A DNA stretch of 64,000 nt from Bilabrum cf. latius (taxonomy: Eukaryota), in assembly GCA_965178125.1 (NCBI GenBank), contig OZ237740.1:1302001-1366000 (forward strand), in the 5' to 3' direction. Both the position numbers and the translations under genes were made by a program. Shown here piece after piece: positions 8,649-40,100 of this stretch. Within the stretch, counting starts at the first letter, position 1. Every line of letters starts with the position of its first letter. Under the pieces are notes generated by a model. It did not search any database and was not told the origin of the DNA. It saw nothing but the letters and a program-made list of their open reading frames with translations.

Positions 8649-11600
8649 ATGCGCCCGAGTGTTGCACAATTAGTTGCAGTGGTACTGCTTGTGCATGCAA
8701 CTTTGGTTCGGTCGGCTGCCAACTTTTCTGTTGAATTCCAACCCGTCGTGCAGCACTGCAGCACGGTCGATGGTGCGCACGAGGCTCCTCAGTGCGGCTT
8801 TGGCTACACTGGAGCACTCACTGAAAGCCCAATTATGTTAAGCGGTAAGCTCTCCTGGGGCGACTTTGAGACGCGGTGCAGCTATCGCTAGATGTCGGGC
8901 CCGGCGCTCTCGAAGATAGAACCTACGTGGAACACTAGCGTGCATCACGGGGATAGGAACGCCTCGGCAACGTTCTAGTACCCTGGAAACTACACGATCC
9001 GACTCCAGGCAGAGCGGAAGGGTGTGATTCGATTCGAGGACATCAGCGTGATCGTCCGGCAACGCTTGCTCGATGACGCCAGCCTCGTACTACCTAGTGC
9101 AGCACTGGCAGGCGATGCCGGCGCCGTCGAGACCTTCCCCTTTGTTACGCACTGGAACGATACTGCCAACGGAACCGCAACTGACGCGTGGTGGGTGCGC
9201 TCCGCCGGTCCTCGGGCGGGGGCAGCCGGACGGATCCTGCCGAACGTCTCGGACGCCGGCCGGTTCTGGCAGGCCGGGCGCAGGGTGCGCCTGTGGGGCG
9301 CCAACCTGTGCTTCGGAGCCAACCTGCCGGCCCATGACCTGGCTTCGTCCATCGCTGGCCGGATCTCCAAGCTCGGGTTTAACGCCATTCGGCTCATGTC
9401 GATCGACGAGAACGGCCTGGGGCCGGATGGCAGGCACTTTAGCGCCAGCAACATCCCGGGAGAGGGCATCAACAGGACGATGCTGGATCGGCTGGACAAT
9501 CTAGCAGCTGAGCTGGCCAAGAGGGGCATCTACCTTCGGCTGGGGCTGCACGTGAACAGATACTACGGCAACGTCTCGTGGCCTGAGGACTCGTACAGCC
9601 GCACCAAGTATGACAAGGGGCTTGGCATGGTGGTGCCCGCCTATCTCGAGTCCTGGAAGGGCTGGACCAGGCAGCTGCTCACCCATGTGAACCCGTACAC
9701 AGGCATGTCCTGGGCCGCTGACCCCGCCCTGGTGACCGTTGAGATCACCAACGAGGACTCGCTGGTGACCGAGTGGGTCAGGGGCCAGCTGGACGAGCCG
9801 TGCGCCAACGCGTCCACGGGGTACGGGGAGGTGCTGGGCGGGCTGTTCGAGACCTGGATCACGAACGGCACCGTGTATGGGCTTGATTCTCCGCTGACTC
9901 TCGCGTGCGACGCAGCCTCGGTGCCACCAGAGGACAGGCGCAGGTACATCCCAAGGGCAGGGTGGGTGCACTCGGTGCCCTCGAACAACACCAGAGCGTG
10001 CTGGCTGGCCTTCCTGTTCGCCGCGGAGAGGTCTTTCTTCGAATCCACGGCTCGGTTCGTCAAGCGCGACCTCGGCTTTGGGGGCATCGTCGTGGGCACG
10101 CAGGCGCACACGGACGCGGTCACGTCTCAGTTCCTGAGTCCCTCCGTGGACGCCATCGACGTGCACAACTACTTTGCCAACAACGAGAATGGGCGCCTGC
10201 ACAACGTGCCACAGAGCGGGCTGTCCTCCGGGGGAGCGCTTTCCACCATCGCGCCCTACCGCGCCGCGGGCATGCCCCTCACGGTGACCGAGTTCAACCA
10301 GCCGGACCCCTCCCAGTTCGGCGCAGAGGTGGGGCCCCTCCTGGCGGCGTACGCGCGGGCCCAGGACCTCGATGCAGCGTATCTGTTCACGTTTGCGGCC
10401 GTGCATTACGTGCACGGGTTCGGGGACGAGACATCGCTCGTGGAGGAGGACGGGTGGCAGGCGGGGCGTGTGATCGAGTACTACCGCATAACGGACGACC
10501 CGCACAAGATGGTGCCGCTCGTGGCTGCCTCCAGGACGATGCTCCTGGGCGATGGCGTGGACACGTGGGAGGGACTGCGGCCGGGTGCATGGGGTGGGGA
10601 ACACGGGGGTGGTGACCTACGTGGCGGGCCATCGGCAGCTCTTGGGCTGCCCGGGAGCAGTGGCAGCGGCGGGAGGCAGTCCGGCAGCGGACCGATGTAT
10701 CTGAAGCTGAGTCCGTCAGAGTTCGACTCGTGGATTCTCTCGCGATTGAACGACCCCTCGCTGTCCACGTGGCGTGGCGCCATGCCGTGCGCTGCTGATT
10801 TGGGACTACCCGCCAACTACTCGATCGGCCGGATTGTCGGATTCGACTTCGGGCCCAGGCCCAAGGTTGCCGACAATGGCGAGCATTCGGGCGGACGAAC
10901 AGTGAGCAGTGCGAGCTCGCCCCTGCCTGACATGAGCCCGCGTGCCACTGGCACTGGCACCGCCCCGAGTGCGTCCCAGCCCGTCGTGGGCTCCTCGCGG
11001 CCGTGGGTCTGGGAGCACGGGGAGGCGCAGGGGTACGCCCTGGTGCGCGGGCAAGGCACCAAAGCTGCCTCTGGATTCATCGCGCGGGAGCAGTGGCCCG
11101 CTGGTGGCCTGCCCTTCGTGTCCAGCGGTGGGCAGATCGACCTGGGCGATCAGGTGGCCGTGACGGTGGGCAGCCTCTCTCGGGATGGGCATGGGGATGG
11201 GGCGAGCTAGGTGCAGGGCATGAAGGTGCAGGCGAGGGCGCCTGCCCTGGGCTGGGCGGTGGTGACTCTAACCGGGGTTGGTCTGCCGGGGGCGGGTGCC
11301 CCGAGGGCTCTGCTCGCCGCTGTGGGGGCCTGGACCAACACGGGGATGGAGGCCCTGTGGGCGGATGTAGAGAGGACGTGGCTGAACAGCAGCAGCATCG
11401 CGCTGTGGGGGTCGGACCCTTCCCGGCTCGAGGGGGTGCTCCTGGAGGTGGTGCTGCCCTGCGAGCCTCTTCAGGCGTGGGGAGGGAGTGCCGGCGGGCT
11501 GGGCAGTGGCAATGCCGCTGCGGCCGCTGGTGCTCGCGTGACCGTGTATGCGCTCGACAGCACTGGCCGCAGGATGGGAGAGCCTGTGGCTTCGGTCCAA

Positions 11601-11696
11601 TGCGACGAAGCTGCATAGGAGCAAAGCACTGTCGCGATAGTGCTGGATGGGCTGGTCCATCGCACCGTACAGTATGAAGTTGAGTATTCGCGATGA
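8649..11696 (+). CDS. Secreted clan GH-A (GH5-like) glycoside hydrolase, ~1015 aa
   Basis: Signal peptide MRPSVAQLVAVVLLVHATLVRSA. Motifs RLWGANL, KLGFNAIRL, LLTHVNPYTG..WAADPAL, acid/base EITNED (~9741-9758) and nucleophile-like TVTEFN (~10281-10298). TAG at 8889, 8976, 11208 and 11616 read through. TGA 11694-11696. Confidence 0.8.
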
Positions 11697-11938: not shown

Positions 11939-14616
11939 ATGCTTGGCGCGGCATTCGCACTCGCCGCAATTTCTTGCGTGCATGCTTATTACAAGCCCGA
12001 TTACTCTCTACCATGGATGAACAAGTAGGATTCCGCTGACCAGCGCGCGAGCATCCTCCTGCAGCACATGAATGTGACTGAAAAGATCCACATGCTCCAC
12101 GGCTCGGCCACCTCGCCAGAGGCGGGCCGCTACGTCGGCGGCGTTGGGTACCAGGCGCGGCTTAACATCCCAAACATCAACTTGAACGATGGCCCCCAGG
12201 GCTTTCGCAACGCCGACAGCTCGCTTCGCGGGACCTCGACTGCATGGCCTTCGGGATTGACGATCGGATCCACCTTCGACGTTCAGTCTGCTCGCCTGTG
12301 GGGCGAGATGATGGGCGAAGAGTTCCTCGGAAAAGGCGCCAACGTGCAGTTGGGCCCGGGAGTGTGCCTGGCCCGAGTGCCGCAGTGCGGTGAGTACCTC
12401 CGCTTGAGACCCGGGCTGTTTGCTCGTCGATTGCCTACGAATGCTTAAGCCTGAAAAGTTGTTTGCCTTCGAATGGTTAAACCTGACTTGTTGTTTGCCT
12501 TCGGATGGTTAAGCCTGAATTGCGAGTTGCTCCCATCGCAGGCCGCGCCTTTGAGTACATTAGCGGCGGCGACCCCTTCCTCGGGTACAAAATGGTGCAG
12601 CCCGCCATCGAGGGGATACAGTCCTACGGCGTGGTCGCCAATGCGAAACACTACATCCTGAACTCTTAGGAGACGAATCGAACGACGACGACGGCTGGAA
12701 TCGATGAGAGGACTTTCTTTGAGATGTACATTCCTCCGTTTGCCGGCGCATCGGAAGCAGGGGTTGGCAGTATCATGTGTTCATACAACAAAATAAGCTA
12801 CGACGGCAAGCCTACACGGTGGAGCTGTGAGAACAACGACACGCTGGGCGTGGACTTCAAGAAGAGGATCGGATTCGAGGGATGGGGTGAGAGAGATTGA
12901 GCTGTCGGATCGAGGCCCATCGCATCGAGCACACAGTGTTCAGCCAACCGCGCTCGTTAACCCTTGGCACCTGCCTTGGCAAATCCACAAGACGCACTGT
13001 TGTGTCAAAAGCCCGTTCCTCACTCTAGACTGTCCGCAGTGATGTCCGACTGGGGCGCCACCCACTCGACCTCGATCAACCAGGGTCTGGACCAGGAGAT
13101 GCCGGGGGCCCACTACATGGGCGGCGAGACCGGCGGCGAGTGCACCGAGCTGTGCGCCGCTGTCAAGAGCGGAGAGGTCTCCATGGACAAGCTTGACGAC
13201 TCGGTCTCTCGCATCTTCAAGCAGCTCTTCAAGATGGGCGTCTTCGACAGGGACCAGTCCAACACCACCAGCAACAACGTGACTTCGCCCGCGCACAACG
13301 CCGCCGCCCGGGAGCTCGCGGCCCGCTCCACCATCCTGCTCAAGAACGACGGCGGACTCCTGCCCATCGACGGGACCGCCTCCAAGATCACCATCGCCGT
13401 GCTCGGCGCCCAGGCGCAGCACCCCATCGTGCACGGCGGCGGCTCCGGCCAGGTGTACCCCTACTACACCTCCAGCCCGCTGGACGCCATCTACGAGGAG
13501 CTCGGCATCAAGAGCCCCGGCCCGCCCCCGAACAACTGCTCGGACGGACACTTCAGCAAGGGCATCGACTACTTCAACCAGGACGGGCAGACCCAGGCGC
13601 CGGCCGCCTCGGCGGAGGCCTGCTGCCTCCTGTGCGCCGAGCGAGGCGAGCCCTGCGAGGCCTTCAGCTTCACAGACAGCGGGGAGTGCTACATGAAGGC
13701 TGACAGCAAGAACCCTCAGCCAAACTCGAAGGTGACAGGCGGGATCGTGGTCTCCAAGCCCAACCAGCAGCCCGTCTGCGACTCGTCGGGGGACAAGTGC
13801 GTCTACTACGCCGACGGCACCAACACCTCGCTGGCCCAGGAGTACGCCAGCAAGGCCGACATCGCGCTCGTGTTCGTGGCCACCACCTCCCACGAGGGCG
13901 CGGACAGGGAGACCCTGGACCTGGACCCCCCTGCCAACACGCTGACCTCCGCCGTGGGCCAGGTGCAGCCCAAGACCGCCGTGCTCATGGTACACCCGGG
14001 CCCCGTCAACACGCCCTTCCGCGACGACGTGGCGGCCATCGTGGCCAACTTCATGCCGGGCCAGGAGTACGGACACGCTCTCATGGACGTGCTCTTCGGG
14101 CGGGCCAACCCGTTCGCTCGACTGCCCATCACCTTTCACGCCGAGAACCAGACGGTGCTGACCCCGCAGCAGTGGCCTGGATTCAACAACCATGAGGAAT
14201 ACAGCGAGAAGCTACTGGTGGATTATCGTTTCTACGATGCCCATGGACTCGAGCCGGCCTTTCCCTTCGGACATGGCCTGTCCTACACGGCATTCGAATA
14301 CTATGGCCTCAAGGTCAGCTCGGGCATGGTCACCTTTTACGTGAAGAACAAGGGCAACGTTGTGGGCTCCGAGATCGCGCAGGTGTACCTGGGCTTCCCC
14401 GAGTCCGCCGGTGAGCCGCCCAAGCAGCTCAAGAACTTCATCAAGCTGGACCTAGCCGCGGGGGCCCTTTCGCAGGTCAACCTGCCGCTGGACGACCGCA
14501 GCAAGTCCATCTGGGACGTGGAGCAGCACGACTGGAAGGTCGTGTCGGGCGAATTCAAGGTGTACGTGGGAGCCTCCAGCAGGGACATCCGCCTGACCGG
14601 GTCCTTCACCGTGTGA
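11939..14616 (+). CDS. Secreted GH3 beta-glucosidase (exons 11939-12389, 12542-12886, 13040-14616) with PAN/Apple-like insert and C-terminal Fn3-like domain
   Basis: Signal peptide. Motifs DGPQGFR, GANVQLGPG, GRAFEY, AKHYILNS*ETNR, IMCSYNK, GWVMSDWG (catalytic Asp), EGADR, PAFPFGHGLSYT, VYVGASSRDIRL. Two GT-AG introns restore the motifs across the junctions. TAG at 12026 and 12667. Confidence 0.93.
12390..12541 (+). other. Spliceosomal intron 1 of the GH3 gene
   Basis: GTGAGT...CCCATCGCAG. Splicing yields the conserved VPQCGRAFEY. Confidence 0.88.
12887..13039 (+). other. Spliceosomal intron 2 of the GH3 gene
   Basis: GTGAGA...TGTCCGCAG. Splicing yields the conserved GFEGWVMSDWG. Confidence 0.9.
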
Positions 14617-16757: not shown

Positions 16758-18818
16758 ATGGTATCCACAGGGGTGGCACGGGGCTTGCGATCATTTTTGA
16801 GATCGCTACCGCCATCAACAGAGTGGGCCAGGATTGCAGCAGGAAGTCACCCCACTTGTCCTGGGCCTTTGAACGTTGTTGTTGGAAATTAGGCGGCGGA
16901 TGCGGATTCTATCATAAGTTCGGTGGTTATGGCTTTCGCTCTGCAGCATGGATCCTCGTTTGCTGGGGCTCAGGAGCATCTGGCGGAGTGGGGCGCTGAG
17001 CGCTGGCGCCCGTCTTGCACGACAGATACCGACCTGTCGAAGACTCACGGCACGTTTGTCCCAATGGTTGCCACCAAAATAGCAGAGCTACCGCTGCGGC
17101 GCGAGGCAGTTTTGCTAGTCGAGGCCTCCACGGATGGAAGCTCAACAGAAGGGTTTGACCCGCTCGCGAGGATCGCCTGCCTCGATTCTGAAGGGATTGG
17201 GGAAGTGAGCAGTGCGTTGGCGAGTATATCTAGTAGCACAACAGGCTGTGGAGGCTCGACTTCTTCCTCCCCCTGCTCGGGCCTCGGCATCGTGCTCATG
17301 GACCACAACCGGCTCGAGCCAGGGGTCGTGCGGGCTCTTGGGTTTGGAAAGGAGGACGGCGGGCCGAGGGTTGATGCCGGTGATGGTGGCAGCAGTGGCT
17401 CGGCTCCGGATGGTTCGAGCGATGCAGCAGCCACAGGAGGCTCAGGCGAGCCCATTCCAGCAGCTGCCAGCGGGTAGGGGGCGTCTAGCGCTTCGGTCGC
17501 TCGCCACACTGGCACGGCCAGGGCCAGGGCCAGGGCTGTGGACCCTGGCTCGCTCGTCTGGGCGATCGTTGACCACCACGAGGATGAGGAGGTACATTTG
17601 GATGCTGCCGGTGGTTGCAACCGGGTCATCATGTTCGACAGCAAGGCGGGCAAGGGCATAGGAAGCACCTGCTCCATTGTCGCCGCGCATCTGCGGAATC
17701 TCGACCAAACGAGCGTTGACGTCAGCGGCGCCGCGCTGGCGCTGGCAGGCGTGGTTGCGCTGGACACTGCGTGCTTCGATCCGTCGAGAGGCAAGACCAC
17801 GGCCTTTGACGAGGCGAGCAGGGACTGGCTGCTGGAGCAGGTGCCCGGGGCCAGCCTGCTCGCCGCGGCGGGAGCACCCCCGTGCGATGCACCCACGGGT
17901 CTCTTGGAGGCCGGTGGTGGGGTCATGCCCGGCCTGGCAGTCAAGCAGGCGGCGCTGGCTCGCCTCTACGATCGGCTGCAGGTCGCAAAGTTTGATCCGA
18001 TCATGTGGGGCGCCATGAAGCCCGAGCTCGTGATAGGATTTGACCTGAAAACGCGGGTGCTGGACGTTGCACCAACAGTTTTAAAAGCCAAAAGTGGCAG
18101 TGCAATAGAGGAGGCCGCAGGTTCGGCCTGTGGCAGTGGCAAGGGCGCAGCACAGGTCGCTGTGGCAGCTGCCCTGTCGCCGATCGCTGGCCTCCTCCGC
18201 AGTCCCACGCTGGCGTCTGCCTGGGTTCGCGCCATCAGATCGTACTGCGAGTCCACCGGGGCGCGGCTGCTGGTCGTGATGACCCTGTGCCTGCCCTCAG
18301 CGAGGGCGGGTGTGCTCGCTGACCTCTACCGGGACAATGCAGGTCCAGGGGCAGGGGCAGGAGCAGACAGGGTGAAGAAGGCAGGTTTGCTGGATTGGAC
18401 TGTCCCCAGTCCAGCAGCAGAGGCCCGATCGCCAGGCAGAGCGGGCACGAGCACTGGTACCAGCGGCGCGGCAGAGAGCGAGAAAGAAAAATAGAAAGAG
18501 CAAAGCGCGTCGCGAGAGAGAGCGCCGCAGCGGGAGGCCCTGGTGTTTGCGCCTCGAAGAGAGGATGCGGTCGTAGCGGCAGAAATCTTGCTGAAGGATG
18601 GCAGCTTGCAGTGCTCTATTTGGTCGCAAGCGGACGCGCCCTCGTACGGCAGACCAGCTGGAGACGCGCCTGCTGAGTGTGATGCGGCTGCGCTCCTGTC
18701 CGAGGCATCAGGGGATATGGCCGGCAATTTCCTGCTCTTACGACAAGGGAACCAAGTCGCGTCCAGAAAGCAGCTTCTTCCTGTGTTAATGAAAGGACTG
18801 CAGGCCGCTTGGGGCTGA
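16758..18818 (+). CDS. DHH-family exopolyphosphatase (PRUNE/PPX1-like)
   Basis: Motifs VVVGN*AADADSIISS, LPLRREA, LMDHN, AIVDHH, GIGSTCSIVA, LAGVVALDT, FDLK and C-terminal QGNQVASRKQLLP. They form one protein only if TAG 16890, 17475 and 18492 are read through. TGA 18816-18818. Confidence 0.88.
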
Positions 18819-23140: not shown

Positions 23141-24979
23141 TCATTTCCTAAACGGGACCATGCCGAACTTGCGGTCCCGCATGGCCTGTTCCACTGCCTC
23201 GGAAGGCACCCCGCTGGCCCCATGCGCATGGTGCATGCGCTACTGCCATGCCTGCTCCCCGAGGATCGCCCGAACCATGCTCTGCTCGGCCTCGTCGTTG
23301 AGGAACGGGCAGCCCCCCGCGCCGGATGACCCGCCCCCGTGGCTGTGCCCCGCAGCCTCGCCCTCCTCGTCTGAACCGCTGTCCGCACCGCCCCCACCAG
23401 AGGCATCGATCCGGTCAGCCCAGAACCTCCCGCTCTCGCTCGTGTCGACAGACCTCTTCTGCTTCTATTTCCCACCCGCTGTTCTCCCTTCGATCGCATC
23501 CTCGATCCAACTCGCCGTGCCGTCGCCCTCCCCCTGCCGGCTCTTCCCGCCCCGTCTTCTGAGATCCTTTGCACCTGCATGCCCTGCACCTGCACCTGCG
23601 CTCGACGAGCCAGTGCTAGCACCACCTCGCGCCGAGCCGCCCCTGGATCGGCTGGGCGATCGCGTCTTGGCTTCGAAGCCATCGTCCCCGGAGTCGTCCT
23701 CCTCGTCCTCGTCCCTCCCCTCCTTGGACTTGGACCGACTCTCGGACCCGCCTCCCTGTTTCTTGGCCGCCTGCTTCCTCTTGCGCTCCTTGTACCTCCT
23801 CGCCGCCTGGTCCAGCACCTCGAGCATCTCAGGGTCCTGCAGCCACAGCCAGAGGCGGTACACCCACAGCGTGCCCTGCCCGCTGTCCGCCACTGCCGCC
23901 CCCTTGTGGTGCTGCAGGTAGGCCCAATCGTCACACAGGAATGAGTACCACAGCAGACCCACGGGCGCGGAGGTGAGGTGCCAGAGGGCATGCGCGTCCC
24001 ACAGGCCACCAAGCAGAGGCGGGAAGTCGCTCACCTCGAACGCCGCCGTCAGCGCCGCCACGAGCACCATGCTAGCGACACCCTTCCAGCTGTAGGCGAT
24101 GGACTTGAAGGGGACCTGCCCGCGCCAAGCAGCCACCCACTGCATGCCCGTCTGCAGGGCCTGCATCACAATGCCAAGCACCCCCACGGCGATCGAGAGC
24201 TTCACGTTGAGCCCGTAGTCGAAGTGCACCAGGTTCATATACAGCGCCATGAGCAGCGTGGAGCCTGCCGCGAAGGTCAGGGCGATTGTGGCCGCAAGCT
24301 TAGACCGGAGGAGAAAAGTTCGCAGAATTACTACGGATGTCTGCACAGCAACCAATGCGAATGCCGAGTTGTAATCTAGTCGTTCCGTCAGCCATGTATC
24401 GGAGGCGTGGAATGCCGCGGCACATGTCCACGTTACCGCACCAACAATGCCGTAAAGGAGAAGCCATGGTGATAAAAAGTAACTCCGATCCATAGGAGCG
24501 TACTAGTGCTGGCTGCGAAAGCGAAAACGCCATGATACTGGTGTTTGGGATGGGATTGCTCAAGATTGGCGGACTAAATGGCCGCGGCTTAATCCTCACT
24601 GATAAGACATAAAATAGAGATGAGGCAGGGCATTTGCGAAAGCCCCGAACGAAGCAGCGATATCATCAAATCCTAACACCCGTGCGGTTGGCCACTTGCC
24701 GAAGTACTACAGCGGTTTGAACGCGTCTGGTCGCTGCCTCTGGCGCAAAGCCTCCGTTTTGTGGATACACAAATATCTACAGTCACTTTCGCAGGTCCAT
24801 CCGAACATACGCAATTCTCGAGGCAGCTTCATCTCGTACTCAATCGGATTGCTACAGTTTGCAGATACACATGACCCTGCGCAGTCTTTAAAGTACGGCT
24901 AGCGATCGCCGGCAGACGCATCTGCAAGCGAGCATAGAGTGCCAAGAAGTATAAGCAAACGATGCCCGGACACAATCAT
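23141..24979 (-). CDS. PGAP3: PGAP3/Per1-like GPI remodelling protein (intron 24513-24599) with an acidic/basic C-terminal extension
   Basis: Signal peptide then SAGDR*PYFKDCAGSC, GWTCESDCRYLC, PL*YFGKWP, AAFHASD..LTERLDY, HFDYGLN, FEVSDFPP..GLWDAHALWH. Intron is GTGAGG...TTTCGCAG (87 nt). Five TAG. TGA 23141-23143. Confidence 0.9.
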
Positions 24980-25159
24980 TCCTCCCGATGTGTAACGAGT
25001 GCGGCAAGCAGAAAAAATGAACCTAAAATGCCGGTTGCAACCAACCACTGTTGAACTTTCAAGAAGAAGATTAAAACCAACCACTCATATTGAATATGGC
25101 CGACATCACGCCAAGCAACTTCGGGGTGGCAAATTTGGCCCGCCGATCCTGTTACCTCA

Positions 25160-25962
25160 TTACTATCCGGCACCAGCACCATCTCCAGCACCACCCTTCG
25201 CAGCCCCTTCCCCGGCGTACGAAGGGGCGTCCTCCTTACCGACCAGCTCCTCTATGCGGGCCTTCCACTCGTCCAGCCCCCAGCTGGAACCGATAGAGCC
25301 GTCCTCTACACCATTTACATACACAGTAGGGGATACGTGGACTCCCTGCTTGCGGCCAGCCTTTATATAGTGTTTCAGGCGCTTCATGACGAGCGACCCC
25401 CCTTCCTTCAGGAACTCAAATCGACCCAGGAACGCCTCCTTGTCCACTCCAACTCCCTCCGCGAGCTCGGCGGCGATTCCCCAGATGTCCCTCACGCTCT
25501 TGTCCAGCGTGGCCTCATCGCTGAAATGCTCGCGCTTCGAGTATAGCACCTGCATTAGCTCGACAGCCTTCTCCTGCCCAGCCACGTCTTCCGCAGCAAG
25601 AACAGCAGCATTCATTGTGTTGGAGTGCATGTGCCACGGCTGCGGGAAAGGCATTGCTACGATCTTAACCTTGCCGGGGTGCGTGTCTCTCAGCCACGGG
25701 ACCACCTTGCCCATGACCGTGCTGCTCATTTTGGCGCAAAACGGGCAGTACATGTCCTGCAAACAGATCGTAAAACAAATTGGATAGCATTTCTACTAGA
25801 ATAATGGGTGGGGAGGCAGTAACACCGAAACAGATTTGGATCGATGGCAGAGGTCTACTGCGGGCTCACGTGCCAGATTGTGACCACAAGTTTCGGGGCG
25901 GCAGCACGAAGCAATCGAATACCAAGGGGTCTTGCTGGGATGATTGCGGCGGGAGTAGCCAT
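25160..25962 (-). CDS. DsbA-like thioredoxin-fold protein (intron 25757-25869)
   Basis: Spliced VVTIWH|DMYCPFCAK gives a CxxC motif. Also PFPQPWH and GRKQGVHVSPTVYVNG. Ends GGA-TAG-TAA-TGA, so the stop is 25160-25162 if TAA terminates. Confidence 0.85.
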
Positions 25963-26070: not shown

Positions 26071-28011
26071 TCAGCCCCGCGGTGGCGCCCCATCGCTTCC
26101 ATTCATAACTTCCTGGTCCTGCGCCTCCTTCCACATCTGCAGCCCCAGCCTCCCCACCGCCGCCATGTCGGCCAGGTCCACCGCCAGTCTCCTCAGCCGC
26201 GGCAGCTCCCTCAGCCGAGAGGACACCTCCTCCACACACTTGCACAGCTCACCCACACCCTTGCCCGAGTCCAGCACGATCCGCGCCGCTGAACCCCGCC
26301 TGTTTCTTACCCGCCCCTGGTCTGCCTCACCGGACCTGCGAGCCTCCACTGCATGCGCCCGTCCATACTAGTGCTCGTGCTCGCCCCAGCCGGCAGCACG
26401 AGCAGGTGCTGCACCGGCAGCACGCGAGTTATGCCCTTGGCGCAGCGTGCGAACAGGAACAGGTCTAGTAGCTAGGCGCACAATGCCGCCCCCTGTTCCC
26501 CGAACAATACCGCTCTCCACAGACCCCCGCCTGTTCCACCGCCTTAAAGGTGACTTGGCCCCCGGCTCTGGTCCTGGCTTGCCTGATTCCACTGGTCCTG
26601 GCGGTCGGGGCTTGTGCCTGCTCGGCCGCGGGGCGCGGGAGCTGCCGCGAGATGAATGTCCATCGGTGGCATCACCACGGCCCCCCGCTCCCTTGGCCCG
26701 CATGTTACCCCCCCTCCCAAACACCACGAGCCCTGCCACCACCTTTCGCATCGCTGACCGCACCGTCCTCCTGACTTCCTCCCGCCGCCGAAGCCTTGCT
26801 CCCGCTGCCTGCGCACCTCCCGCCGCTCGCATGAACGACTTGGTGGGTCTGAGAGACCGGGGGCCAGGGCTCAGGTCCTAGTGCGGGTCTTGCGCAGCGC
26901 TCGTAGTGCCGGTGCCGGTGCCCGGTTGGCTAGGACAACCCCCGGTGGAGCTCTCGCCATCGCTGCCGCCTGCTCCACTTGAAATGGATCCTGTACTAGC
27001 CGCAGATATGCCATCATGGGTGCTCGTGCCAGCAGCACCAGCAGCATCGGCAGTCCACAGGCCACTGGTACCAGCCCTCATGGCACTGGCCCTGAGGCCA
27101 CCCCTCGCTCGCTCCTTGTCGACTTTGCCTCGGCCCCGTGTATCAGGATCTACTGCTCGTCTTCCAGGACCATTGAGGCGCAGATGCACGGCGTGCAGAT
27201 CGGTGGCATCCATCGCGCGGAGGGAGTCCACCACGGGCTGCAAGAACCGGCTTGCAGCGCGCACCCGACCAAGCTCAACGTCTGCTCGGAACCGCAGCTG
27301 CCTGGACCTGGATGCCTCCGCTTCCTGCCGCGCCCTTGCTTCCAGCCTGCCGATACGTCTCACGCGATGATTTACTCGTGCCTGTAGTCTGGACTGCGGC
27401 GGTTTTGCAGCGGCTGGTGCGTTTGGCTCGGTGCTTGCAAAGCTACTTGTTCTGAATACTACACAGGTCCTCGGTGTTCCCGGCTCAGTTCTGCTGCTAA
27501 CATGTCGTTTAGCTGTTTGAGCACTTCTACGAATTGCGTGGATTTGCCGCTCGAGATTCGTGTGCTCCACGCGAATTGCGTCCAGGTCGCTCCTTGCGCG
27601 ATCTCGAATGTGGAGCGTAATGTCTTTCCTGGCCTACGCAGACTCAATACGGCGATGGAGCCGCAGTACATCATCATACACAGAGGAAGATTTAACCGCC
27701 CAATCTGGGACGTCGTCCAAAAGGCTGTCCGCGTCGAAACCGCTGACTTTGGACTTCTCTCTTTCAACCCTACTATGCTCGGCTGGATCCAAGACACTGA
27801 TGGGCCGCTTGGTCAGAAATAATAGCCCAGCAAAGGTTTTAAGGGCCCCATGGTTCTCATGCGATTCTAGCAGGACCCTTCTATCGATTTCACGCTCTCT
27901 TTCCAGAGCGGATACAAGCTGCGATCGTGCCTCATCTAGCTCCCTTCTGAGCCTCAACACGTCTGTATCCCTGTGCACTCCATAGCGTAACGAGTTCTAA
28001 AAGTTCTTCAT
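26071..28011 (-). CDS. Hypothetical coiled-coil/Arg-rich protein, ~646 aa
   Basis: ORFs 27634..27978, 26878..27570, 26368..26832 and 26071..26349 share one frame and are joined by TAG only. ATG 28011, TGA 26071-26073. Confidence 0.65.
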
Positions 28012-28158: not shown

Positions 28159-31100
28159 TCACACACCATCAGGCAGCAGCCGCGACTTCTAAACCTCCAC
28201 GGATTCCTCAATGTCGCACGCGTACGGCCCCATCCCCGCGTCTCTAGCCTCCTCTAAGGCGAGGCCAGCCAGCAAGAACGTGTCATTCGCGGTCCCGTGA
28301 CGCAGCCGTGGCAGCCCCGACACGATCATGTTGGAGGACTCAGGTCCGCCTAGCTCGATCTGCCCACCGAAGAACAGCGCGACCCGCGGCCACCTCAGGT
28401 GCACTGCCTGCATGCCCATCCGAGGCCCGGGGGGCTGGCCCCGCATGCACAGGCTGGTAGTGCTGTGCCACACAGCCACTGGTGCCTCTGGCGCGCGTGA
28501 AAGGGGTCCTCCGTCCAAAGGCGGGAACAGAGACTTGTGGCTAGACAACGCACCGCATGTGTCGTTGTTCCTTGAGCTTTCCTCGCCACGCTTCGCGAGA
28601 TGATCTTCGTCGGCTGGCAGGAGGTTCACCTCGCTGCCGTCGCAGGACACTTGCAGACGGACCGGTGCGTTGCTGCCGGCCACCTGGATCGGCAGCCGGG
28701 TCAAGTTGCTGATACTGGGCCCAAGGCATGCAGCCGCGTCGGTAGCGTCGCCGGAGGCATTGCTAGACTGGTTGCGCTGGCCCTCGGAAGCCGGGTCCAG
28801 CGGTGGGGCATGGGCTGCCCCTTGAGAGACAGACCGGAATCTCTGCAAAGAGCTATGGCGGGTCGAATCTGCGCGCGAGCCTCGTGCCACAGCCGAATCG
28901 GCGAGGGACTCGAGCACTTGGACAGCAAGTGAGGGTCCGACCCCTTTCAGCGCCAGGTGGGCCGAGCGCAGCGCAGCGTCCAGGGATCGGCGAGCACCGT
29001 GTGGATGCAGCGTGGGAATGAGAGGCAGAAAGTCCCGCCCGTGTAACCGTGAGCTCCTGGCGCGAGACTGGGCCTCTGGTGCGCGAGATGCTGGCCCCAG
29101 CTTGCCTTTACCAGCCTGTGCCGCTGCCTGCAGCTGCAGCACCCGATCCAGCTCGCCCCGCCTGGTACTGCATCGCCTCGAGAACAGAGAGCGCAGCAGC
29201 TCGCATTGCTACTCTAGCACGGCACCAGTTCCTCCAGCAGCGCCCATTGAGCCAGCGAATTCGACAGAGGCGCCCGCTAGAGGCCCCTGCCCGCCCAGTA
29301 TTGCAGATGCGGACGCTGACGCCGCATCTCCCCACAGCGCGGTCAGCTCCTCTTGCATGTCTGCCATTGCGGCAGTGGCGACGCCCGCCAGCTGACTGTT
29401 CTTTTCACCCTTAGAAGGCCCAGCACTCTTACCACCGTGCTGAAGCAGCGAGCCCTGGCTATCGTCCAGCGTAGAGGCGCCGAGGCCGCAAGCAGCAGCC
29501 GCATCGCTGGTCTGCATCTCCCAGCAGCCAAGGAGCCACCCGAACTCTTCAAGGTTGCGCCTGCACTGCGCGGGCACATCATGCGCAGCGAGCGCACCCA
29601 CGGCTCTGGTCTTGCTCACGACTGGCTCACAGCCGCACCCACCGCCCACGTGGCCAGTCCCGATGCGTGCAAAGGGGGTCCGAAACCTGCGCTCAAGCTC
29701 TGGCACACGCAGCTGGCACTGCTGGTTCACCGTCCACAGGTGACCATCGAGCGGCTAGGTCCGCACAGTGTGCCCGTGGTTTTGCATCGATTCTGTGCCT
29801 GTGCCGCTCGTGGCGTTGATCGCGAGAAAGGAGCCCAGCTTGCTCAACTAGCGTTTGCGTTTCTTCTGTTGCCGGCTACGCTTGCGCTTCGGAGATGTGG
29901 TCTCGATCCACTGCTCCCTGGCTGCGGCCACCTCTGGCGGCACGTCAGCATCGGCCAACTTGTTCATGGCAGAGGAGAGCCGCTTGGCAATCGCGTGGAA
30001 GGTTCGCAGCGCGGACTCGGCCGCGCACATCGGGGCATTCGGGTACCTCCTGCGTGTCTCTATCCTGTAGGGCCGCCGCGTGCTGAGGCCCGAGCCGGCC
30101 GTGGTGGAAGCAGCAGCAGCAGCAGCAGCAGCGTCGAGGGTACCGGAGGCACCAGCTTCGTCGTATATCTTGATACTGTACGTCTTGGGCTTTGGAGGTG
30201 CCTCTGGCGGTAGCATGGACAGCGCAGCTCCCTCGCTCCGAATGCCCCTGCGCCACACCACCACCGGGACCTATACGCCGCCTTGCTCCGAAGCAGACCC
30301 GTCGATCGTCATGGCCGATCCTGCAGATCCCGCCGGGGCTGAAACCCACTATAGCGCCTGCTGATTCCCAGTGGGGGCTGCATCTACCCCGCTCCACTGC
30401 AAGAGCTGCTTTGCCGCCTGCTCCTTGCCACTGAGGGGAGAGAGATCCACGGACACCTTCGGGCCATCGGTGCGGCGGCCGTCACCCGGCATGCGCACGC
30501 CAGGATTTCTGGTCTTGGGAGGCTTCTTATCCCCGTCTAGTTCTGCGCTTTCGCTCTGGAGCAAGCTCGCCGCCGCATCGGGGGCGGACAGAGGGGTCCC
30601 CGGGGCAGCCTCCACGCAGTCGCACACGGCCACAGTATCACTAAACACCCTGAGACGAAGGCAACGGCGCCCGCCCACCCACATAGAGATCGCAGGCCCC
30701 CGTGGTACCTCCCAGATCCCACCGTCCTCGCTGTACGACTGGTCCTGCAGAGAGTTGAAGGCAGCTCGGCGCGCCCCCGCAAGTTGAGTGACAGGCAATG
30801 TGGTGCCCCAGGAGAAGATCGCCGCCTCTGTGGCATCGGCTGCTCCGGCAGCACCGCCGAGGAATCCCGAGCCAATCACGAGAAGTGGCCCCCTTGGGGG
30901 TCCATCCACAAGCTTGGAGGGATACACGGCGGCCAGCCGCGGCGAGCCAATCGAGACTATCCCGCCACCGAGCTGGCCGCCTCCGGGCATCTCGTCCGCA
31001 ATTTGCCACGGGTCGGAAGACGCGTCTGCGGTGGAAACTTTGTTTTCTTCATCGCCGGTATTGCCGCTTACCATTCCCCGCGCGTTTGCATCCAGCCACA

Positions 31101-34100
31101 GCCTGCCCAAGGTGGCCGCTTCCTCTGCGTTCGTCCTTCCATCGCGCAGGTGCACCACCACCGTCTTGGAGGCATCCCCCGGCTCGCTTGGCGAGAGCTG
31201 GCAGCTGATCGCGTGCTGGCTGTGCCACACGATGCCCTGGCATTCGTTGCCTCCTACGAGGACCGCCCGCACGTTGGGATTGTTTCCTGCCCAGCTGGAG
31301 TAGTTCGCTCCGCACTCAGCCTCCCGGCGATAGCCCAGGCGTGGCCGAATTGGCTCGATGCGACCGTCCAATATGCGAGCCTACGCAACATGATAGGGAA
31401 ACGATCCGTTGCGACTGCCCCGGACACTCATCGCGGGCATGCCGCCAAGGGCACCCCCTGCCGGATGCGAGGGCAGCCAGCCGGGCTAGTACTCTCTGCA
31501 ACCAGCCACGCACCGGTTGATGCCATCCACGAAGGCCCATTCGTCGCAGGCTCCCAGCCCCCGGCCATACACCCACATCCTCGAGTCGTCTGCTTCAGTA
31601 CCATTCCGAGCAGAGTCAATTGCACTCGAATTGTCCGACTCGGTCGCACTGGTCGCCGTCAAGTTAAGAAAGCTGGTCTCCTGCGCGGTCGGGTCCACTC
31701 GAGTGACCCGTGGCAGGCCGACATCTAGCACCGCGGCATCGCCGAGGGACCGCACACCGGCATGGCGCCTATCCTGCATCCAATCGCCTGAGGCCTGGCT
31801 TCCCGCCCCGTAACCACCCATCACAACGAGCCGTTGCTGCAGCACGAGCGCGGTGTGGCCGTGCCTCGCGATCGGTGCATCCCCTGCCTTGCGCATCCGG
31901 CGAAGGACCATGTGAGTGGGCAGGCCGTTCGCTCGACCGTGTTCGCAATGCAGACCTTCCGCTGTGACTGCCAAGGCTGGACCGCGCGCAGCCCGCTGCA
32001 TGGCCCCAGACCACGCCTGTGTGTCCGAAGCAAGGCCACCCACTGCAACCATACAAGGGAAGCTGGCGCCCGAAAACCCGGCGAATGAGATATGCCACAA
32101 GTCACCGTGCACGTGATTGCCTACACCACCATACACATACACTGACGCACCAATTGCGGTTGCCGAGTGGCTGAACCTCCCTGGCATTGGTCCATCGGGC
32201 TGCACGACCTCAAGGTCGAGCCACCTCATGCTGGGCGCATGCAGCACATGCACGTCGCCCAGCGGCACAGCTTCAGACAATGGGGCGGTCACCCCATCGC
32301 ATGCACCGTGCTCGCCCCCAGCAGCCTTGCAATAGGCAGTTGCGCTATTCTTGCCCCTGTACCCGCTGCCACCGGTGATGACAAGAAGCTCGTTTAGCAC
32401 CACAGCAGCCGCGTGCTTGTGCCGCGGCCCCGGGCCGTTTCCTTGTACGCTCGGTTGCTCCCATCTCCAGCTCCAATATTGCGGTTCGTACGTCGCCTTG
32501 TAGTGCCAGGGCCCAAGCCTGCTTTCCGAGGCTGCAGTATACAGCGATCTGGCCTCGTCGGACGTGCTACCGTCTGGTTCAGCAAGCCCAGCGACTACAT
32601 CCTTGTCCGCCTCAGTGAGATCCTGCACGTCGATCGGCTCCAAACCTCCTTGCAGCAGGAACGATGGTGCTCTATGAGGGTTTGCTAGATGCAGGCCAAT
32701 GGAGCTTGGACGCTTGTGCTTTCCGGCCGCGGCCAGCTGCGAGCTCCCGTCCTCCTCAAAGGCACCACCGAGGCATTCCATAGAGTCGCTTTTGGGGGCC
32801 ATGCAGCCCGATGCAGCAGCAGCTACCGCCCGTCGCAGCATTACCAAGTCACCGCGCAGGACCGGAGACAGTGAATTGCCGTCAGCTAGGCCATGGACAC
32901 GATTGGCAGGCCCCAGTCCACCGAAGACAACGATGGCGTCTCCCAGCGACGGAGACCGGGGCGCATGTGTCCCGGCATACCCATCTCGATCCACTCGCAT
33001 CCACAGCCGGCTAATCGGCACGAAATCCGTATTTTGCGTAGTGCCTTGGATCTTGCTAGCGTGATTCTTACGGAATGCCTCCGGGTTTGCCGCAGCCTCC
33101 TTAAGGATACCGTTGGATGTGGCAGTGTCTACGGTGGGCGATACACCGTGCTCGCCAGGCTGAACCTTAGATCCCTTTGCTAGCCGGATTTCGGTTGCAG
33201 ACAAAAGGTCGTGCCGCTCAGCCCCCACAGCAGCCGAAAGGGTGTCCTGCTTGTAGTCACTCCCGCCCTGCAAGCCAGCCTCGGCACCTTTTGAAAGTGT
33301 CCCAACGTGCAAGGCGCCGTTCTATGTTCCTTTCGCTGCCTGGCGATCGGCAGCCTGGCGAGAGAGTAGAATTGATTTCGCTTTGGAAACGTCACCGTCC
33401 GCAAATAGCCTATGGAAGGAACTGGCAGAATGGAAGGCGCGGGGCAGCATGGGCACCCCTTCGGCGGGTTGAAGGCCGCCGCCTGCATCGGTGCCGCCCC
33501 CCAGAAGCTTCCAGACATGGCCAGTAGCTGCAAGACCACTGCCATGCCAGCCTTTCGGGGCCCGGATAGGGTTAGAGGGCGACACCGTCGACGCAGTCCC
33601 CTGCCACTGCGCTGCCATCGAAGATCCCGGCCCCACAGCTTCAAGGCCCGCATCGGCCGCTGCCTAGTACTGGGGCGGCAGCGGCTCGACCGGTGTGTCC
33701 GATACTGTTCGAGGAGCAGCCGCGGCATGATATGATGCCGAATTTTCTGGAGTGGTACCCGCCGAAGACTGTAGCAATGAACTTGCCTTGGTGGCAGCAG
33801 TGTCTGCATCCAGGGCCTGCTTGAAGCCAGCCACTAGAGCAGGCACTTCTTCGGGTCCGACCCCTGTCCCCGGCTTCATAACCCACACGCCGGCAGTGTA
33901 CACTGTATCACTTCCTGCTAGCCCCAACGCAACACCTCTCTCCAACCCCTCGCGGCACACCCCACCCGTGAGAACGACTGCACTACCGCCATCGATGGGC
34001 ACCAGTGCGGAACCTTCCATAGGCGGTGGGGCCATGGCCCCGGTCTCGGGATCCGCTCCGCAGTCGCACACGCAATCCAGCTCCTCCTCATCCTGCATCC

Positions 34101-37100
34101 ATGATGAAATTGGCTCCGTCGTACCTGCTTCGGGCTCTGCCGGCTTGGTCTCTGCATTCTCCTCCTCCTCCTCCTGCTACTACTGAGCCTCTAGCGCAGC
34201 CCCCGCAACTTCCTCCATGCCTTGCATTGCCGAATCGATGGAATCACGGACGATTGCATCGATGTCCGGTCCGGGCTCCTCGCTTTGAGTGTCTGCGGCA
34301 GATTTTGCGGCTTGCTTTAGCTTGTTTCCAACACGAGAGACGAGCTTCGAGATCGGATCAGCACGTCTCCTTGACGAGCTAGACCAAACGGATAGGAGCT
34401 AGAGAGCGCTAGGCACCTACTGCAGATCTGAGTGTCGACCAGAAGCTCCAATAGAATGCAAGATGCGGTCTCGCATCCAACGAGCATCCGCTAGAATATG
34501 GTTGAGCTGCGAATGACCAGGCATCTACGGATCATCGAGATGACTCGCGGTGACCCCGCCATGAATGGCATGCGCAGCTGCGGCTGTGCCCAGAGCAATG
34601 ATAGGGCACTCAATAAGAGCATGCTCAGCGGGTACTTGTTGCGTCATCGCCACAGTGGTGCGGTTGCACCATTCAAATGCAGCCTCTGCGTGGTCATAGG
34701 CGCAGTCAATCCCGCAGCGCAACTGTGATCTTCTCCGTCGTCCCACAACCCAATGTTCTGTGTGCTGCAACGATACGCGCGGCACCGATGGCAAGGGGTT
34801 CGGACCAAGCTGCAGCAGCGATATGGATTCGCTGACTCCGTCGGCTGCGGCCACTGCGTTGTGCTGGGCGGCAGACTCGATCGCATGTCCTGCCAGAGAG
34901 CTTAGCTGTGCTAGACCCAGCACAACTTTCATGATCGCCTCGATGATCTTGAGGATGATGCAGAAGATGAAGAAGGGCAGGTTTGTAAAAGGGTTGGGGT
35001 CGCAGTCCCTCGGCTTGAACTCCTTCATTTCCGATTCTTGCAGGTCCAGCTTAAACTTCTAGCTAAACTTTGTCTTCTTGATTGACAAGGACTTCTATGT
35101 GTGTGTTCTGGTCTTTGTCCTGGTGATGAGCCGGTATTCGGGCGACTAACCGCTTGGCGCACACACTAGGTCGCTGCCCTCTGGTTCCGGGCCGCTGCAG
35201 AGGCACCCCTCGCCTGTGTCTATGTCGCAGTCTGGGAAATCGTCTTCGTCCTCCTCGCTGGCAGGACATCCACCTCCATCAGCCTGCCTGGGGACACACT
35301 CCCAATCGGGACTGCGACTGAGGTACCCCAGTCTGCCCCACTTGCCCAATCGCACCTCGCCGTTGCCCTGGTCCTCGATCTGGGCCCAATCGAAGTGTGA
35401 TGCGAGTGGCGCAGCACCACTCGTGGCACCGGCATCCAGGAGAGCGAGGGAGGCAAGGCCTGCGCCGGACATGAGCGCTTGATCCAGCACACGAGGTGCG
35501 GTAACAGGGCACGAGGCTTGCCACTCCTGGCTGTGCATGTGGGGATACACTGGGAATTGGGAGACATTCTGGTTCTGCGCCGTGCCATTCGATCCTGCAG
35601 TGATGTTGCTCGGAGTTGCCTCCTACCCTGAGGTTGCATTGCCCTTCGGCACGACTGCTGACTCATTGTGAGTCACAGGTATAGGAGCTGGCGCGGGTCG
35701 ACACGGGCGGACACTCCATGCATCAAGCTCGTCGTCCGTCTCTGACGGCCACTCAGACTAGCCCTTGGCGTGCGAGCGATCAACAGGACCGACATGCCCG
35801 GGGAGGTACAGCGGGCACTGCCATGGCTCGCCAACCCCCGGATCAGAGCCAGCGCCATGTAACGTACACTTGTTCTCAACCAGAGTAAAATCAGCAGACG
35901 CGAGCGGGTGGGAGGGAGACTACCCGTTGATAGGAGCCTTGCCACCTCCTGCCAGTCGTCTGACATCGCCAGCTCTGTTTGACCTTGCGACAGACGAAAG
36001 CGCCATGGGATACCGCAGGGGCACGAAGGTGTTGGCCGGTTTCCACCGGCCTCTGCCCTTTGTGGTAGCTGTCGCCATCATGCACTGGGTGCGGTTCTCA
36101 AAGAGACCAGCGGCACTCGCAGCTGCCTGTGCCTGGCTCGCAAGGCGTGCAGCTTCCTTTGCTTGCCCTTCGCTTACTATTTCGTCCAAAGGCACGCTTC
36201 CGATGTTCGTTTCTCCGGCGGTGGCGATGTCGGGGTTTTCTTGGGATGCCGCATCTATTGGAGAGCCGGGGTCCTCTTCACCATCAGTGAGCAGTTGGGC
36301 TGCCCTTTGCTTGGCCTCCTCCTGCAGATGGGGCGGAAGCAGGTCTACCCTAGTCAGCGTGCACTACCCTTCCTAGTCAATGCAGTCTCGCTCGTTACTA
36401 GCCCCCGACAGAGGCCCGCACACACCCTCGATTTCGGCTCGGCATCCCTCCCACTACTAAAGCTGGGCGGCTTTCTCGACCTCGGCTGGGTCCGGTGGCA
36501 GGACGACATCACCGTCCACTAGGGTGCTATTTCGGAGATCGATCGGCTGGTGGCCCTCAGGCGCCTCCTTGGGCAACACAACCGGCTGAGTGCCGGGGAT
36601 ACCGGGCGGCACGGCACCCGGCAAGCTAGGAGGCTCGGGCTGAAAGGGTCCATCTGTGATTGTGGCGGTAGCATCGCGCGGAGCATCGGCTGATGCTTTT
36701 GCCATCTGAGCAATGATGTCAGCTACTGGCACAAGCCGTGCAAATACGGAGTCAGAGTCGAACGCAATGGTGTCCACTTGTACTGCTGCTACCGTTGCAC
36801 GTTGCAGAGCCCTCGCATTTGGGGCCTGGTACTCAGCGGCGTAGGACCACAGCCCACCGATGGGGACAGCACCAAAATGGGTGGCGTTTATGCTTGCTTC
36901 AAGCGAGAGATCTCGCAAATCCCATAGCCCACGCAACAAACTGCTGCCAGCAAGAGCGACAGTGGTGAAATTCCAGGCTTGAATGCCCTATTGCCCCCGA
37001 GAGACGGACTCGTGGAGCCCAGGACCCAGAAAGCCATCCAGCCAGCCGTGCCGTGCCGCCTGAAATGCAGCTTCAGGTCGGATCCCCGGCACAGGCCACG

Positions 37101-40100
37101 CATGCTGCCTGGCCTAAGCTCGCAGAAACCGTGAAACGGACTTCGACTGCTAGATGTATTCGCTGTCTTGAAGCTGTGAGGGAACCCGCACAGCCTGACT
37201 GGTACCTAGCTACGCCACGACAGCCGCATCGGATGGATCCAGGAGGAAATCTCCTTGGACCGCTCGAAGCAGAGGTACCGCTGCTTCATCATCCGCGTGT
37301 TGGTGGCAGTGCTACCCGCCGAGTGCAGCGCAAAGGGCTTGGGCGGGACCCGGGAGGGACCCATTGGACAGCAAGGCAAGAGAGCTAATGACGTCATCGT
37401 GGCCATACAGGTAAGCTCTTGCCAGTCCTTCCTTGCACCGGACAGGCCCTAGTCGCGCGCAGATGCAGTCAACGGTCACGGGAAACCCAGAGCGATGGAA
37501 CCTTTCAGAGGCAATCTAGATCGGGCTGCCAGCCACTGTGGAGAGCCCGTCGTCCAGCTGCAACACGCTCGCACTTGCAGCAGGCGAGAAATGCTCCGCT
37601 TCAGACTTAATGCCTCTTCGACGCACCCTAAGCTCTGCCTTGACGGCGCTTTGATGATACCTTTGGCTAATGCCCAGCGCGCCGTGCACCGGGTCCAGTT
37701 CGTACCCGCTGCACGCGCGCGCCACAACATCGGGCCAGAGGATGCTGCCTGGAAACGAGGGCGGCTTCGAGTGGCTCCCGCTTGCGGTGTCCCAAACGCT
37801 GGCTGGGGAAAATGACCCGCCCACTGGCTGGTCCAGATACGTTCCGATCAAGGCTGTGGCTTCGGCCTCTGGTACCATGGCGGCGTCGGCGGCGCGGACT
37901 GCAACTTCAAGTTGATCGATTGCGGATCTCTAGCGGTGCACGCCAAGGTCACTGGAGATGTTCGAGATATCGCGGAGCGACGAGTGAATGGCGCCATACC
38001 CAGATGACGCGCCGTCTAAAGCCGCCTGTGATTGCTCAATTGCGACCATCCACTGCCGTCTGGCCTCTGCTGCCCGGTGCACCAGGGCTCTTCGCCTGGC
38101 GAATGCCGGATCCGAGCCTAGTGTTGATAGCAGCAGCGACCGCATGGCACCCTGCACGTCCGAATCGCCGCGGGCCTGTGCCTGGGCAATGGTCTCGCGG
38201 CACCGGATTGGCCCCACCTGAGCGCACACGCTCTGCGCAGGGGGGCGGGTGAGAACACGGAGCGCAGCTCGAATGTCGCGGCGAGCGGAGGCAGCTGCCT
38301 GCGTCCACATCATCTGGCAAAGCTTGCTCGCCCGCACTAGTTCCGCAAGGGGGGCTGAGTACTTGGGTGGCTCACGGCCATGCAGCTTAGCATCTTCTAC
38401 TGCAAGGCTCCAGCATATAATATGGGCGGGAGAGCCCACGTCGGGAGCCACCCTCGATGCTGCAACCGCTGATGACGACTGCAACAGCTCGCTGCCTGTG
38501 CTCAAGTGGCCAATGCCGCTCGGATTGACCAGGTTGATCGCATTTTCAAAGCTCAAGGCTCCAGGACCCACACCGATTAGAGGCGGGAGCACCACGGGAG
38601 CCTGCCGGCTGTTGCGAACTGCATCGCCTTGAGAAAGACCTTCAACGTCGGCGGGTTCCTTCCCGCGAGGGTCCGAAGCGACGACCCCGTGGGGTGACAT
38701 CAAGAAGCTGCTTTCTGGTACTACCTGAGCAGTGCGTCCAGCACGCAGAGCTAGCATGTGCTGCCTGCGCACCCTCTCCACCGCCCGTTGCGCATCCGCT
38801 TCCTTCGCCTGGACCATCGAGTCAGCCGTCCACAGCGCCTTGCGGAACTGCGCCAGCTGCGCTCTTCGTTGCTGCTTTCGCTTGAGCACAGCCTTCTTCA
38901 TGGTGCTTCCGCTGGCAACATTCTCGTCTAGCATGGCACCTGCAGCTACAATCCTCTCGCGCATCTCCTCCGCCCCTGCGAGGGCTTTGATCTCTCGCCA
39001 GGGGCTCACCGTCTCGGGGTCCGGGTCTGCTTCCCTGGTGAGGGTGGGATCCATGGGAGTGGCCGGCAACACTCGCAGGGGCTTCCCCTCTGCGACTGCT
39101 TCGGCCTGTTTGACGACGGCTTGCAACCGCTGGGGCAGTGGGCTTGCGCTCACCGAGGCGGGCTGTTTCTTGCCAGGTGCCTCCGAGCTTGGGCTGGGGC
39201 TGGCACTCGAGGCAGCTGGGCCCCGGGAGGGCGACGGGGTGGGGAGAACTTTCACCGCATCGTCCACAGCCCGCTCGATAGAAGCATCAACGCCCTCTTC
39301 CGTTGTGTCTGGCGGCAGCACAGGCGCGTCTGCCTGAGCCGCCTCGAGGACTTGCTCGTCCTCTTGGATCGACTCGGCCTCTCGGGCTGCCTCCTCAGGC
39401 GGCTTCTCTGCAGCCGTCTGTGCTTGCTACTCCTCAGCTGCTTCATCGGGCTGCAGAACCTTCTCTATCTCTTTCAACGCGCTGTGAGCGGCCTGCTTGG
39501 TCTTTTCCACGGCTTGCATTGACTCGGCCGCTGCTCGCTCAAGAGCCGGAGGCACCTGCCCTTTGGCCAAGCTGCTGTGCTGCTCCTCAGGAGTGGGGCA
39601 TTTGCAGCACGGCCACCTGGGCTGATTCTTCCTCCCCACGGGGTTCAATGCTTCTTTGTCTCCCCTTTCGCCCCACACGTACTCCGGGTGTCCCATCTCC
39701 GTCACGATCGGAGACCCGCGGACGCCCTTCCACCGTAGGTCCGGGTTCTCCTCCGTGCACGCGCAGCATTGCTTCCCCTTGTCAGCCGCCTCCGCTGACG
39801 TCTCCATGTCACTGCCCGCAGAGCCTGTCCCCCCACCGTCCTGCCCCTTCCCCTGCTCCTCGAGCGGGTTTGGGAAGAGCTCCTAGCTCGGGTGTGCGGG
39901 ATCCACGTACTGAGGGGGAGGGGCCTTGGAGGTGTCCACCCCAAACGTGCCGACGAGCGGATCGCCATTTCTAGGATCTGGGCGGACGGCATCGAGGGCA
40001 TCTTGCCTCGCGTCGTCCTTGCCGTCACCCAGCTTTGGGGCGCGTGGGAAGCCATCGGTCTCGTCCCCCTGCTTGCTAGGCTAACGCGCATCATCAGCCT

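Follow-up and report, generated by a model that had tools for sequence, protein, structure and literature searches.

We conclude with high confidence that the in-frame TAG at positions 24709-24707 (minus strand), which lies in the conserved Per1 motif of a PGAP3 gene, is an ordinary glutamine codon. It is found in a window of 64,000 nucleotides, i.e., the whole stretch of DNA that was analyzed. TAG is a sense codon throughout this window, and UAA and UGA are not sense. The sequence evidence points strongly to a nuclear code in which UAG is read as Gln, with UAA and UGA as stops (the pattern of NCBI table 15). The host is a protist with GC-rich, intron-poor nuclear DNA and UGA as its dominant stop codon.

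The minus strand from 24718 to 24686 reads AAA CCG CTG TAG TAC TTC GGC AAG TGG CCA ACC, i.e., KPL*YFGKWPT. The frame that opens with the ATG at 24979 was compared with Pfam, the TAGs being read as X. PF04080 (Per1) matched both exons of the gene, with E-values of 5e-14 (exon 1) and 2e-34 (exon 2) and scores of 53 and 120 bits, above the gathering cut-off of 25.3. The first-pass annotation had placed the TAG within the Per1 family motif, and this placement was correct: the codon occupies the column before YFGKWP. The gene is organized as follows:

24600-24979, minus strand: PGAP3/Per1 exon 1, starting at the ATG at 24979, with a hydrophobic N-terminus and a Cys-rich part
24901-24899, minus strand: in-frame TAG in exon 1, codon 27, at a variable column
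24686-24718, minus strand: Per1-domain motif KPL[TAG]YFGKWPT (sequence read and Pfam match)
24707-24709, minus strand: in-frame TAG, codon 91, at the Q/K column before YFGKWP
24513-24599, minus strand: intron of 87 nt, GT..AG, with the joint present in X5 and X6 contigs
23141-24512, minus strand: exon 2, with the remaining Per1 domain and a low-complexity tail, ending in TGA
24505-24503, 23467-23465 and 23242-23240, minus strand: in-frame TAGs in exon 2

The apparent TGA after exon 1 is the 5′ end of the intron, and 24600 is joined to 24512 in the contigs of runs X5 and X6, which come from two studies and are putatively RNA. The spliced model has two exons and codes for 583 amino acids, with five internal TAGs and a terminal TGA. 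Over ∼23570-24981, a region that spans the three N-terminal TAGs of the five, no other letter was observed in the X5 and X6 contigs. The PGAP3 gene is intact and, X5 and X6 being putative RNA, apparently expressed. At the level of consensus contigs, assembly error and editing are both ruled out for the codon-91 TAG. The family motifs GKWP, ERLDY, DFPP and DAHALWH are all kept, and the protein differs from the Per1 family in having T instead of F after GKWP and an extra low-complexity C-terminal tail of ∼250 amino acids. A word-based homologue search with exon 1 returned no matches.

In the Per1 motif the residue at this position is expected to be Gln in animals and fungi and Lys in plants. A HMMER search over 1.84 billion representatives gave 638 PGAP3 matches (E≤0.001), and the column was tallied in the best 150 of them, where Q was present in 101, K in 46 and H in 3. 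Exclusion of 14 vertebrate-like PGAP3 rows from these best 150 of 638 left 136 rows for the final counts (Q 87, K 46, H 3). Neither in the best 150 of 638 nor in the 136 was a single E, L or Y observed. The closest homologue among the matches listed, P0003 (62% identity), has Q. When each residue was put at the TAG, which is the sole TAG within the matched stretch, the Per1 HMM scored 56.9 bits for Q, 55.4 for K, 53.5 for E, 52.9 for S, 52.3 for Y and 51.9 for L. This alignment had been proposed in the first-pass annotation as the check on its claim that the motif favors Gln over Glu, Leu and Tyr. Q came out on top, with K 1.5 bits lower, and the column was neither variable nor Glu-dominated. 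As support for Gln the motif thus stands against Glu, Leu and Tyr, but it does not stand against Lys, a real rival at codon 91 with 46 of the 136 rows. Judging from the aligned homologues, the column excludes Glu, Leu and Tyr and by itself is compatible with Lys. Lys there occurs beyond plants as well, since P0012, which has K, is a Paulinella sequence.

The behavior of TAG was then compared with that of TAA and TGA across the window. The 15 gene models, which amount to 18,775 codons, contain 100 internal TAGs, present in 14 of the 15, and no internal TAA or TGA. Since the models were delimited by TAA and TGA, the absence of these codons follows in part from the procedure; it is still meaningful, because frames of 2247-4036 codons were obtained and ∼19-33 TAA would be expected if TAA were decoded like TAG. 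The most extreme case is the following gene:

28159-40269, minus strand: Kelch/TIG gene of 4036 codons, with 37 internal TAG, no TAA and one terminal TGA

The five other frames of the Kelch/TIG gene carry 4-16 TAA and 37-83 TGA. The internal TAG excess is far beyond chance. The terminal codons of the 15 models are TGA in 14 cases and TAA in one; TGA closes 15 of 16 gene ends and TAA the remaining one, and none of the 16 (few genes, most with C-termini that lack homologues) requires TAG as a stop. TAG behaves as a minor synonymous codon: it is spread along genes, makes up 12% (100/823) when counted with the Gln codons, and is rarer where GC3 is higher (rho −0.60, p 0.017, 15 genes). The window has a GC content of 55-74%. 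Its spliceosomal introns (87, 113, 152 and 153 nt) and eukaryotic domain matches mark the DNA as eukaryotic, the matches being Per1, MyTH4, LRR, Kelch, SPFH, GH3 and RME-8-like. No tRNA genes were detected within the 64 kb, and no eRF1 was encountered.

Relatives of the window were sought by a metagenome scan, in which 6 loci (L001-L006) were retained out of 116 pattern matches. L003-L006 are distant PGAP3 loci and are uninformative on TAG. The sequences of L001 and L002 are 99.9% identical. Both share synteny with the window across three genes (57-67% protein identity), and they use internal TAG too. Between these orthologues TAG and CAG are exchanged in both directions. The window TAG at 24709 (PGAP3 codon 91) is CAG in L001/L002, and the window CAGs at 25642 and 26139 are TAG there. 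The features concerned are:

26137-26139, minus strand: CAG in the gene at 26071-28011, TAG in L001/L002 (orthologue alignment)
25160-25962, minus strand: thioredoxin-like gene with an intron at 25757-25869 and a TAA end (Pfam, contigs and orthologues)

The CAG at 25642-25640 of the thioredoxin-like gene stands in the context PFPQPWH, in which 10 of 10 neighbors are identical in L001/L002, and a distant homologue, P0157, also has Q in this column. The last sense codon of the same gene, TAG at 25165-25163, corresponds to Q in the sister proteins P0155 and P0158 (∼95% identity). This terminal Q is presumably encoded by CAG or CAA, because the same protein collection cuts the relative's protein (P0156) at TAG. 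In total, four TAG/Gln swaps were found between orthologues. In other orthologue pairs a window TAG is matched by L, D or E, and a TAG in the relative is matched by H. Where the context is conserved, Q is the partner of TAG at 3 of 6 sites, of ordinary Q codons in 14 of 30 counts and of E codons in 1 of 49. The sister runs X8 and X9 cover a 20-kb stretch at ∼90% identity; 40 of the 2105 differences between the window and X8/X9 were listed, and none of those 40 falls at a TAG codon. Since internal TAG is used on both sides, we infer that the code had already changed when the lineages of the window and of L001/L002 (57-67% protein identity) diverged. The tail of PGAP3 (23141-23900, minus strand) ends in a block, GGCPFLNDEAE...HAHGA, that is 64% identical in L002 (3250-3915), and this conservation suggests a small module. 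Synteny with the window stops in L002 at 4311-5741 (minus strand), an AAT/C45-family gene with 3 internal TAG.

The fit of each residue was also evaluated on fixed LG+G4 trees by assigning it in turn to the individual TAGs, the sums being made by hand. Ten sites were testable, seven in the window (of its ∼100 TAGs) and three in the relative. Summed over the ten, Q was preferred over E by ∼7.0 and over K by ∼18 log-likelihood units. The three sites of the relative contributed 5.9 units to Q over E, and counting them assumes a shared code. For the window's seven sites, Q exceeded E by ∼1.1 log units raw and ∼3.8 when weighted by codon share. Codon 91 of PGAP3 is the strongest single discriminator of Q and E among the ten (Q over E by 4.0, Q over K by 4.2). 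The best residue was Q at 5 sites, E at 2, and L, D and H at one each, in this small sample. Q at 5 of 10 is in line with the figures in the accessible text on Iotanema spirale (PMC5304391), where, at 90%-conserved columns, 41% of UAG and 44% of ordinary Gln codons lie on Gln-dominated columns. A two-class neighbor-context test was weak (Q vs E p ∼0.06, Q vs K leaning to K) and was not counted. An amino-acid context model for TAG was dropped, since its own controls failed (in all 12 draws CAA sites were assigned a residue other than Q). A search for internal paralogy within the window gave no TAG-bearing alignment.

Two further conserved motifs with an in-frame TAG bear on the choice between Gln and Glu:

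11939-12389, 12542-12886 and 13040-14616, plus strand: exons of a GH3 beta-glucosidase gene
12667-12669, plus strand: TAG in the GH3 motif KHYILNS[TAG]ETNR, middle exon
16890-16892, plus strand: TAG in the PRUNE/PPX1-type motif GN[TAG]AADADS, the sole conserved site favoring Glu

UAG could stand for glutamate, with the PGAP3 and GH3 sites being Q-to-E substitutions; there is a precedent, as PMC11687900, in its accessible text, attributes UAG = Glu to the ciliate of PMC10553269. The PRUNE-type site, which was absent from the first-pass annotation, speaks for it: among 106 bacterial matches the column has E in 96, D in 3, Q in 2 and K in none, and E is also present in yeast Ppx1, the sole eukaryote sampled. 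In addition, the PGAP3 TAG at 23242 lies opposite GAG in L002, and the raw preference for Q over E from the window alone is small. On the other hand, Q is found at the PRUNE-type column not only in those 2 matches but also in family II PPases, and the Pfam DHH model scores Q and E nearly equally there (15.0 vs 14.8 bits). If TAG is Gln, this site implies a rare E-to-Q change. The GH3 column points the other way. Of 26 bacterial loci 25 were aligned, with Q in 17, E in 1 and K in 0, and among the PDB matches listed (of 45 in total) Q was present in 5 of 5. The Pfam family-wide GH3 model is near flat at this TAG (S 36.9, Q 35.9 and E 35.6 bits). With E in only 1 of 25 GH3 sequences, in none of the 136 PGAP3 rows (filtered from the best 150 of 638), and with four TAG/Gln swaps between orthologues, the glutamate reading is improbable.

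A dual meaning of UAG, in which two tRNAs deliver Gln and Glu or in which, after the manner of context-dependent codes, internal UAG is Gln and UAG close to the 3′ end is a stop, is still less probable. It would accommodate the conflict between Q-type and E-type conserved sites, and also the end of the thioredoxin-like gene, which reads TAG TAA TGA (25157-25165, minus strand; the sole TAA stop of the 16 gene ends), with the relative's orthologue likewise ending in TAA. Against it, that last TAG is matched by Q in the sister proteins, and none of the 16 gene ends needs TAG as a stop. A single E-column site in ten is unremarkable, given that in I. spirale no more than 41% of the UAGs at 90%-conserved columns lie on Gln columns.

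Lysine fits the PGAP3 column alone, in view of the K rows, the small HMM difference and the leaning of the context test, but it is largely refuted and has almost no probability left. K is missing from the 25 GH3 and the 106 PRUNE-type sequences, and the ten-site likelihood lies ∼18 units below that of Q. At codon 91 itself, Lys is ruled out by the CAG of the orthologue and by these other sites, and by nothing else. That the TAGs are true stops (in pseudogenes or through assembly errors) or are RNA-edited (UAG to UGG or CAG) has nothing in its favor beyond the bare stops themselves and is refuted as far as consensus contigs, in which rare editing would be invisible, can show: internal TAGs number 100 against 0 TAA/TGA, contigs from two other studies carry identical letters at the TAGs, spliced ones included, with no editing seen, and an independently assembled relative has the same TAG usage.

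Glutamine is therefore, of the residues weighed, very likely the one inserted at UAG. By analogy with known cases, the mechanism would be a tRNA-Gln with a CUA anticodon that decodes UAG, derived from tRNA-Gln(CUG) by one base change. Such a tRNA would be unable to read UAA, so that UAA would stay a stop codon, and eRF1 might have lost or weakened its affinity for UAG. The accessible text of PMC5304391 describes tRNA-Gln(CUA) as one base from tRNA-Gln(CUG) and as reading UAG and not UAA, and reports for I. spirale an eRF1 with T32G in the GTS motif.

Codes with UAG reassigned and UAA kept as a stop are rare. PMC11687900 lists four species in which UAG alone is reassigned to Gln, namely I. spirale and the ciliates Hartmannula sinica, Trochilia petrani and Protocruzia tuzeti. 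In the literature searched (mostly without subscription papers and supplements) we found no further nuclear case, nor any in stramenopiles, and the accessible text of 10.64898/2026.07.28.741278, PMC10120064, PMC13524828, 10.1101/2025.03.26.645542 and PMC11412368 adds none. I. spirale (Fornicata) resembles the window in that UAG is Gln, UAA and UGA are stops and UAG is no terminator there, but its dominant stop is UAA (104 UAA vs 15 UGA, according to the part of PMC5304391 that is accessible), whereas in the window TGA closes 15 of 16 gene ends. No evidence links the organism of the window to fornicates. In the table 15 ciliates (H. sinica, T. petrani and P. tuzeti), too, UAG alone is read as Gln, and it ranks as a minor Gln codon or as the second one. 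By the figures of PMC11687900, UAG accounts for 18.5% and 31.8% of Gln codons in this group, compared with 12% in the window; 91.9% of H. sinica genes terminate in UAA and UGA serves as stop in 8-13% in two of these ciliates, whereas the window uses mostly TGA; and phyllopharyngean GC is 27-54%, against 55-74% in the window with its introns of 87-153 nt. The same source gives UAR = Gln codes (table 6) for many ciliates, hexamitids, Streblomastix, ulvophytes and Amoeboaphelidium. Table 6 shares UAG = Gln with the window, but TAA is sense only in table 6. This code was rejected for the window, where TAA is not sense (0 internal vs ∼19-33 expected).

A nuclear code of the table 15 type is thus probably present here in a further protist clade, beyond the reported lineages. 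We lean towards a new, independent origin of UAG-only-to-Gln in a GC-rich protist clade outside ciliates and fornicates, shared across 57-67% protein identity. From the style of the proteins, the organism may be a Cafeteria-like bicosoecid (Stramenopiles). A quick-mode tree of 92 PGAP3 rows gave no clear placement, no close homologue with a name turned up, and cluster look-ups yielded distant names only. None of 10 window ORFs was present in the protein collection, and atlas searches and three scans of viral contigs were empty or unspecific.

If this is true, UAG and UAA would have been decoupled in a genome that is free of AT pressure, and UGA, not UAA, would be the main remaining stop codon, the first such case in the literature searched, as far as its accessible text goes; in the three UAG-only-to-Gln species with figures in the accessible parts of PMC5304391 and PMC11687900, most genes stop at UAA. 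In a GC-rich, TGA-terminating clade one could test whether the change requires codon capture under AT pressure and how eRF1 drops UAG yet keeps UAA and UGA. Public data exist at three levels of relatedness, namely an identical sequence in three studies, sister sequences at ∼90% DNA identity and the relative at 57-67% protein identity, so that dating of the code change and direct reading of the TAG/CAG exchange are possible. Gene calling with the standard code truncates such genes: only the first 26 residues of PGAP3 would be called, and P0156, the protein collection's version of the relative's thioredoxin, begins just downstream of its TAG. In the public protein sets P0155, P0156 and P0003 are truncated calls, cut at TAG or at introns, and automated annotation appears to have missed the code.

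Several other genes of the window deserve mention. The Kelch/TIG protein (28159-40269, minus strand; 4036 amino acids), which has the highest TAG count, carries recurring SLLQ-like motifs. A MyTH4-domain protein with acidic tandem repeats of ∼29 amino acids (40750-47493, minus strand) is adjoined by a frame with GDGQDGGEGE repeats and 10 TAG (47629-49131, minus strand), and the two may be exons of one gene. An RME-8-like giant gene (50778-63347, plus strand; 3901-aa frame, GC3 0.84) has 2 TAG only, with probable upstream exons at 50778-51500. The PRUNE/PPX1-like DHH protein (16758-18818, plus strand) is highly divergent with long low-complexity inserts, and neither a word-based homologue search nor a PDB search gave matches for it. 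A PKD-like segment had no match in the PDB, and a plasmid search also gave none. The GH3 gene (11939-14616, plus strand), with its two TAGs both in upstream exons, codes for a C-terminal domain that is interrupted by a PAN domain, and its best PDB matches are the fungal-type beta-glucosidases 3zyz and 4i8d. Finally, secreted-looking carbohydrate-active genes of bacterial style are located at 6840-11696 and 63553-64000, with a pectate-lyase-like fold and a glycoside-hydrolase-like protein of 1015 amino acids without a Pfam match; their style makes an origin by gene transfer possible.
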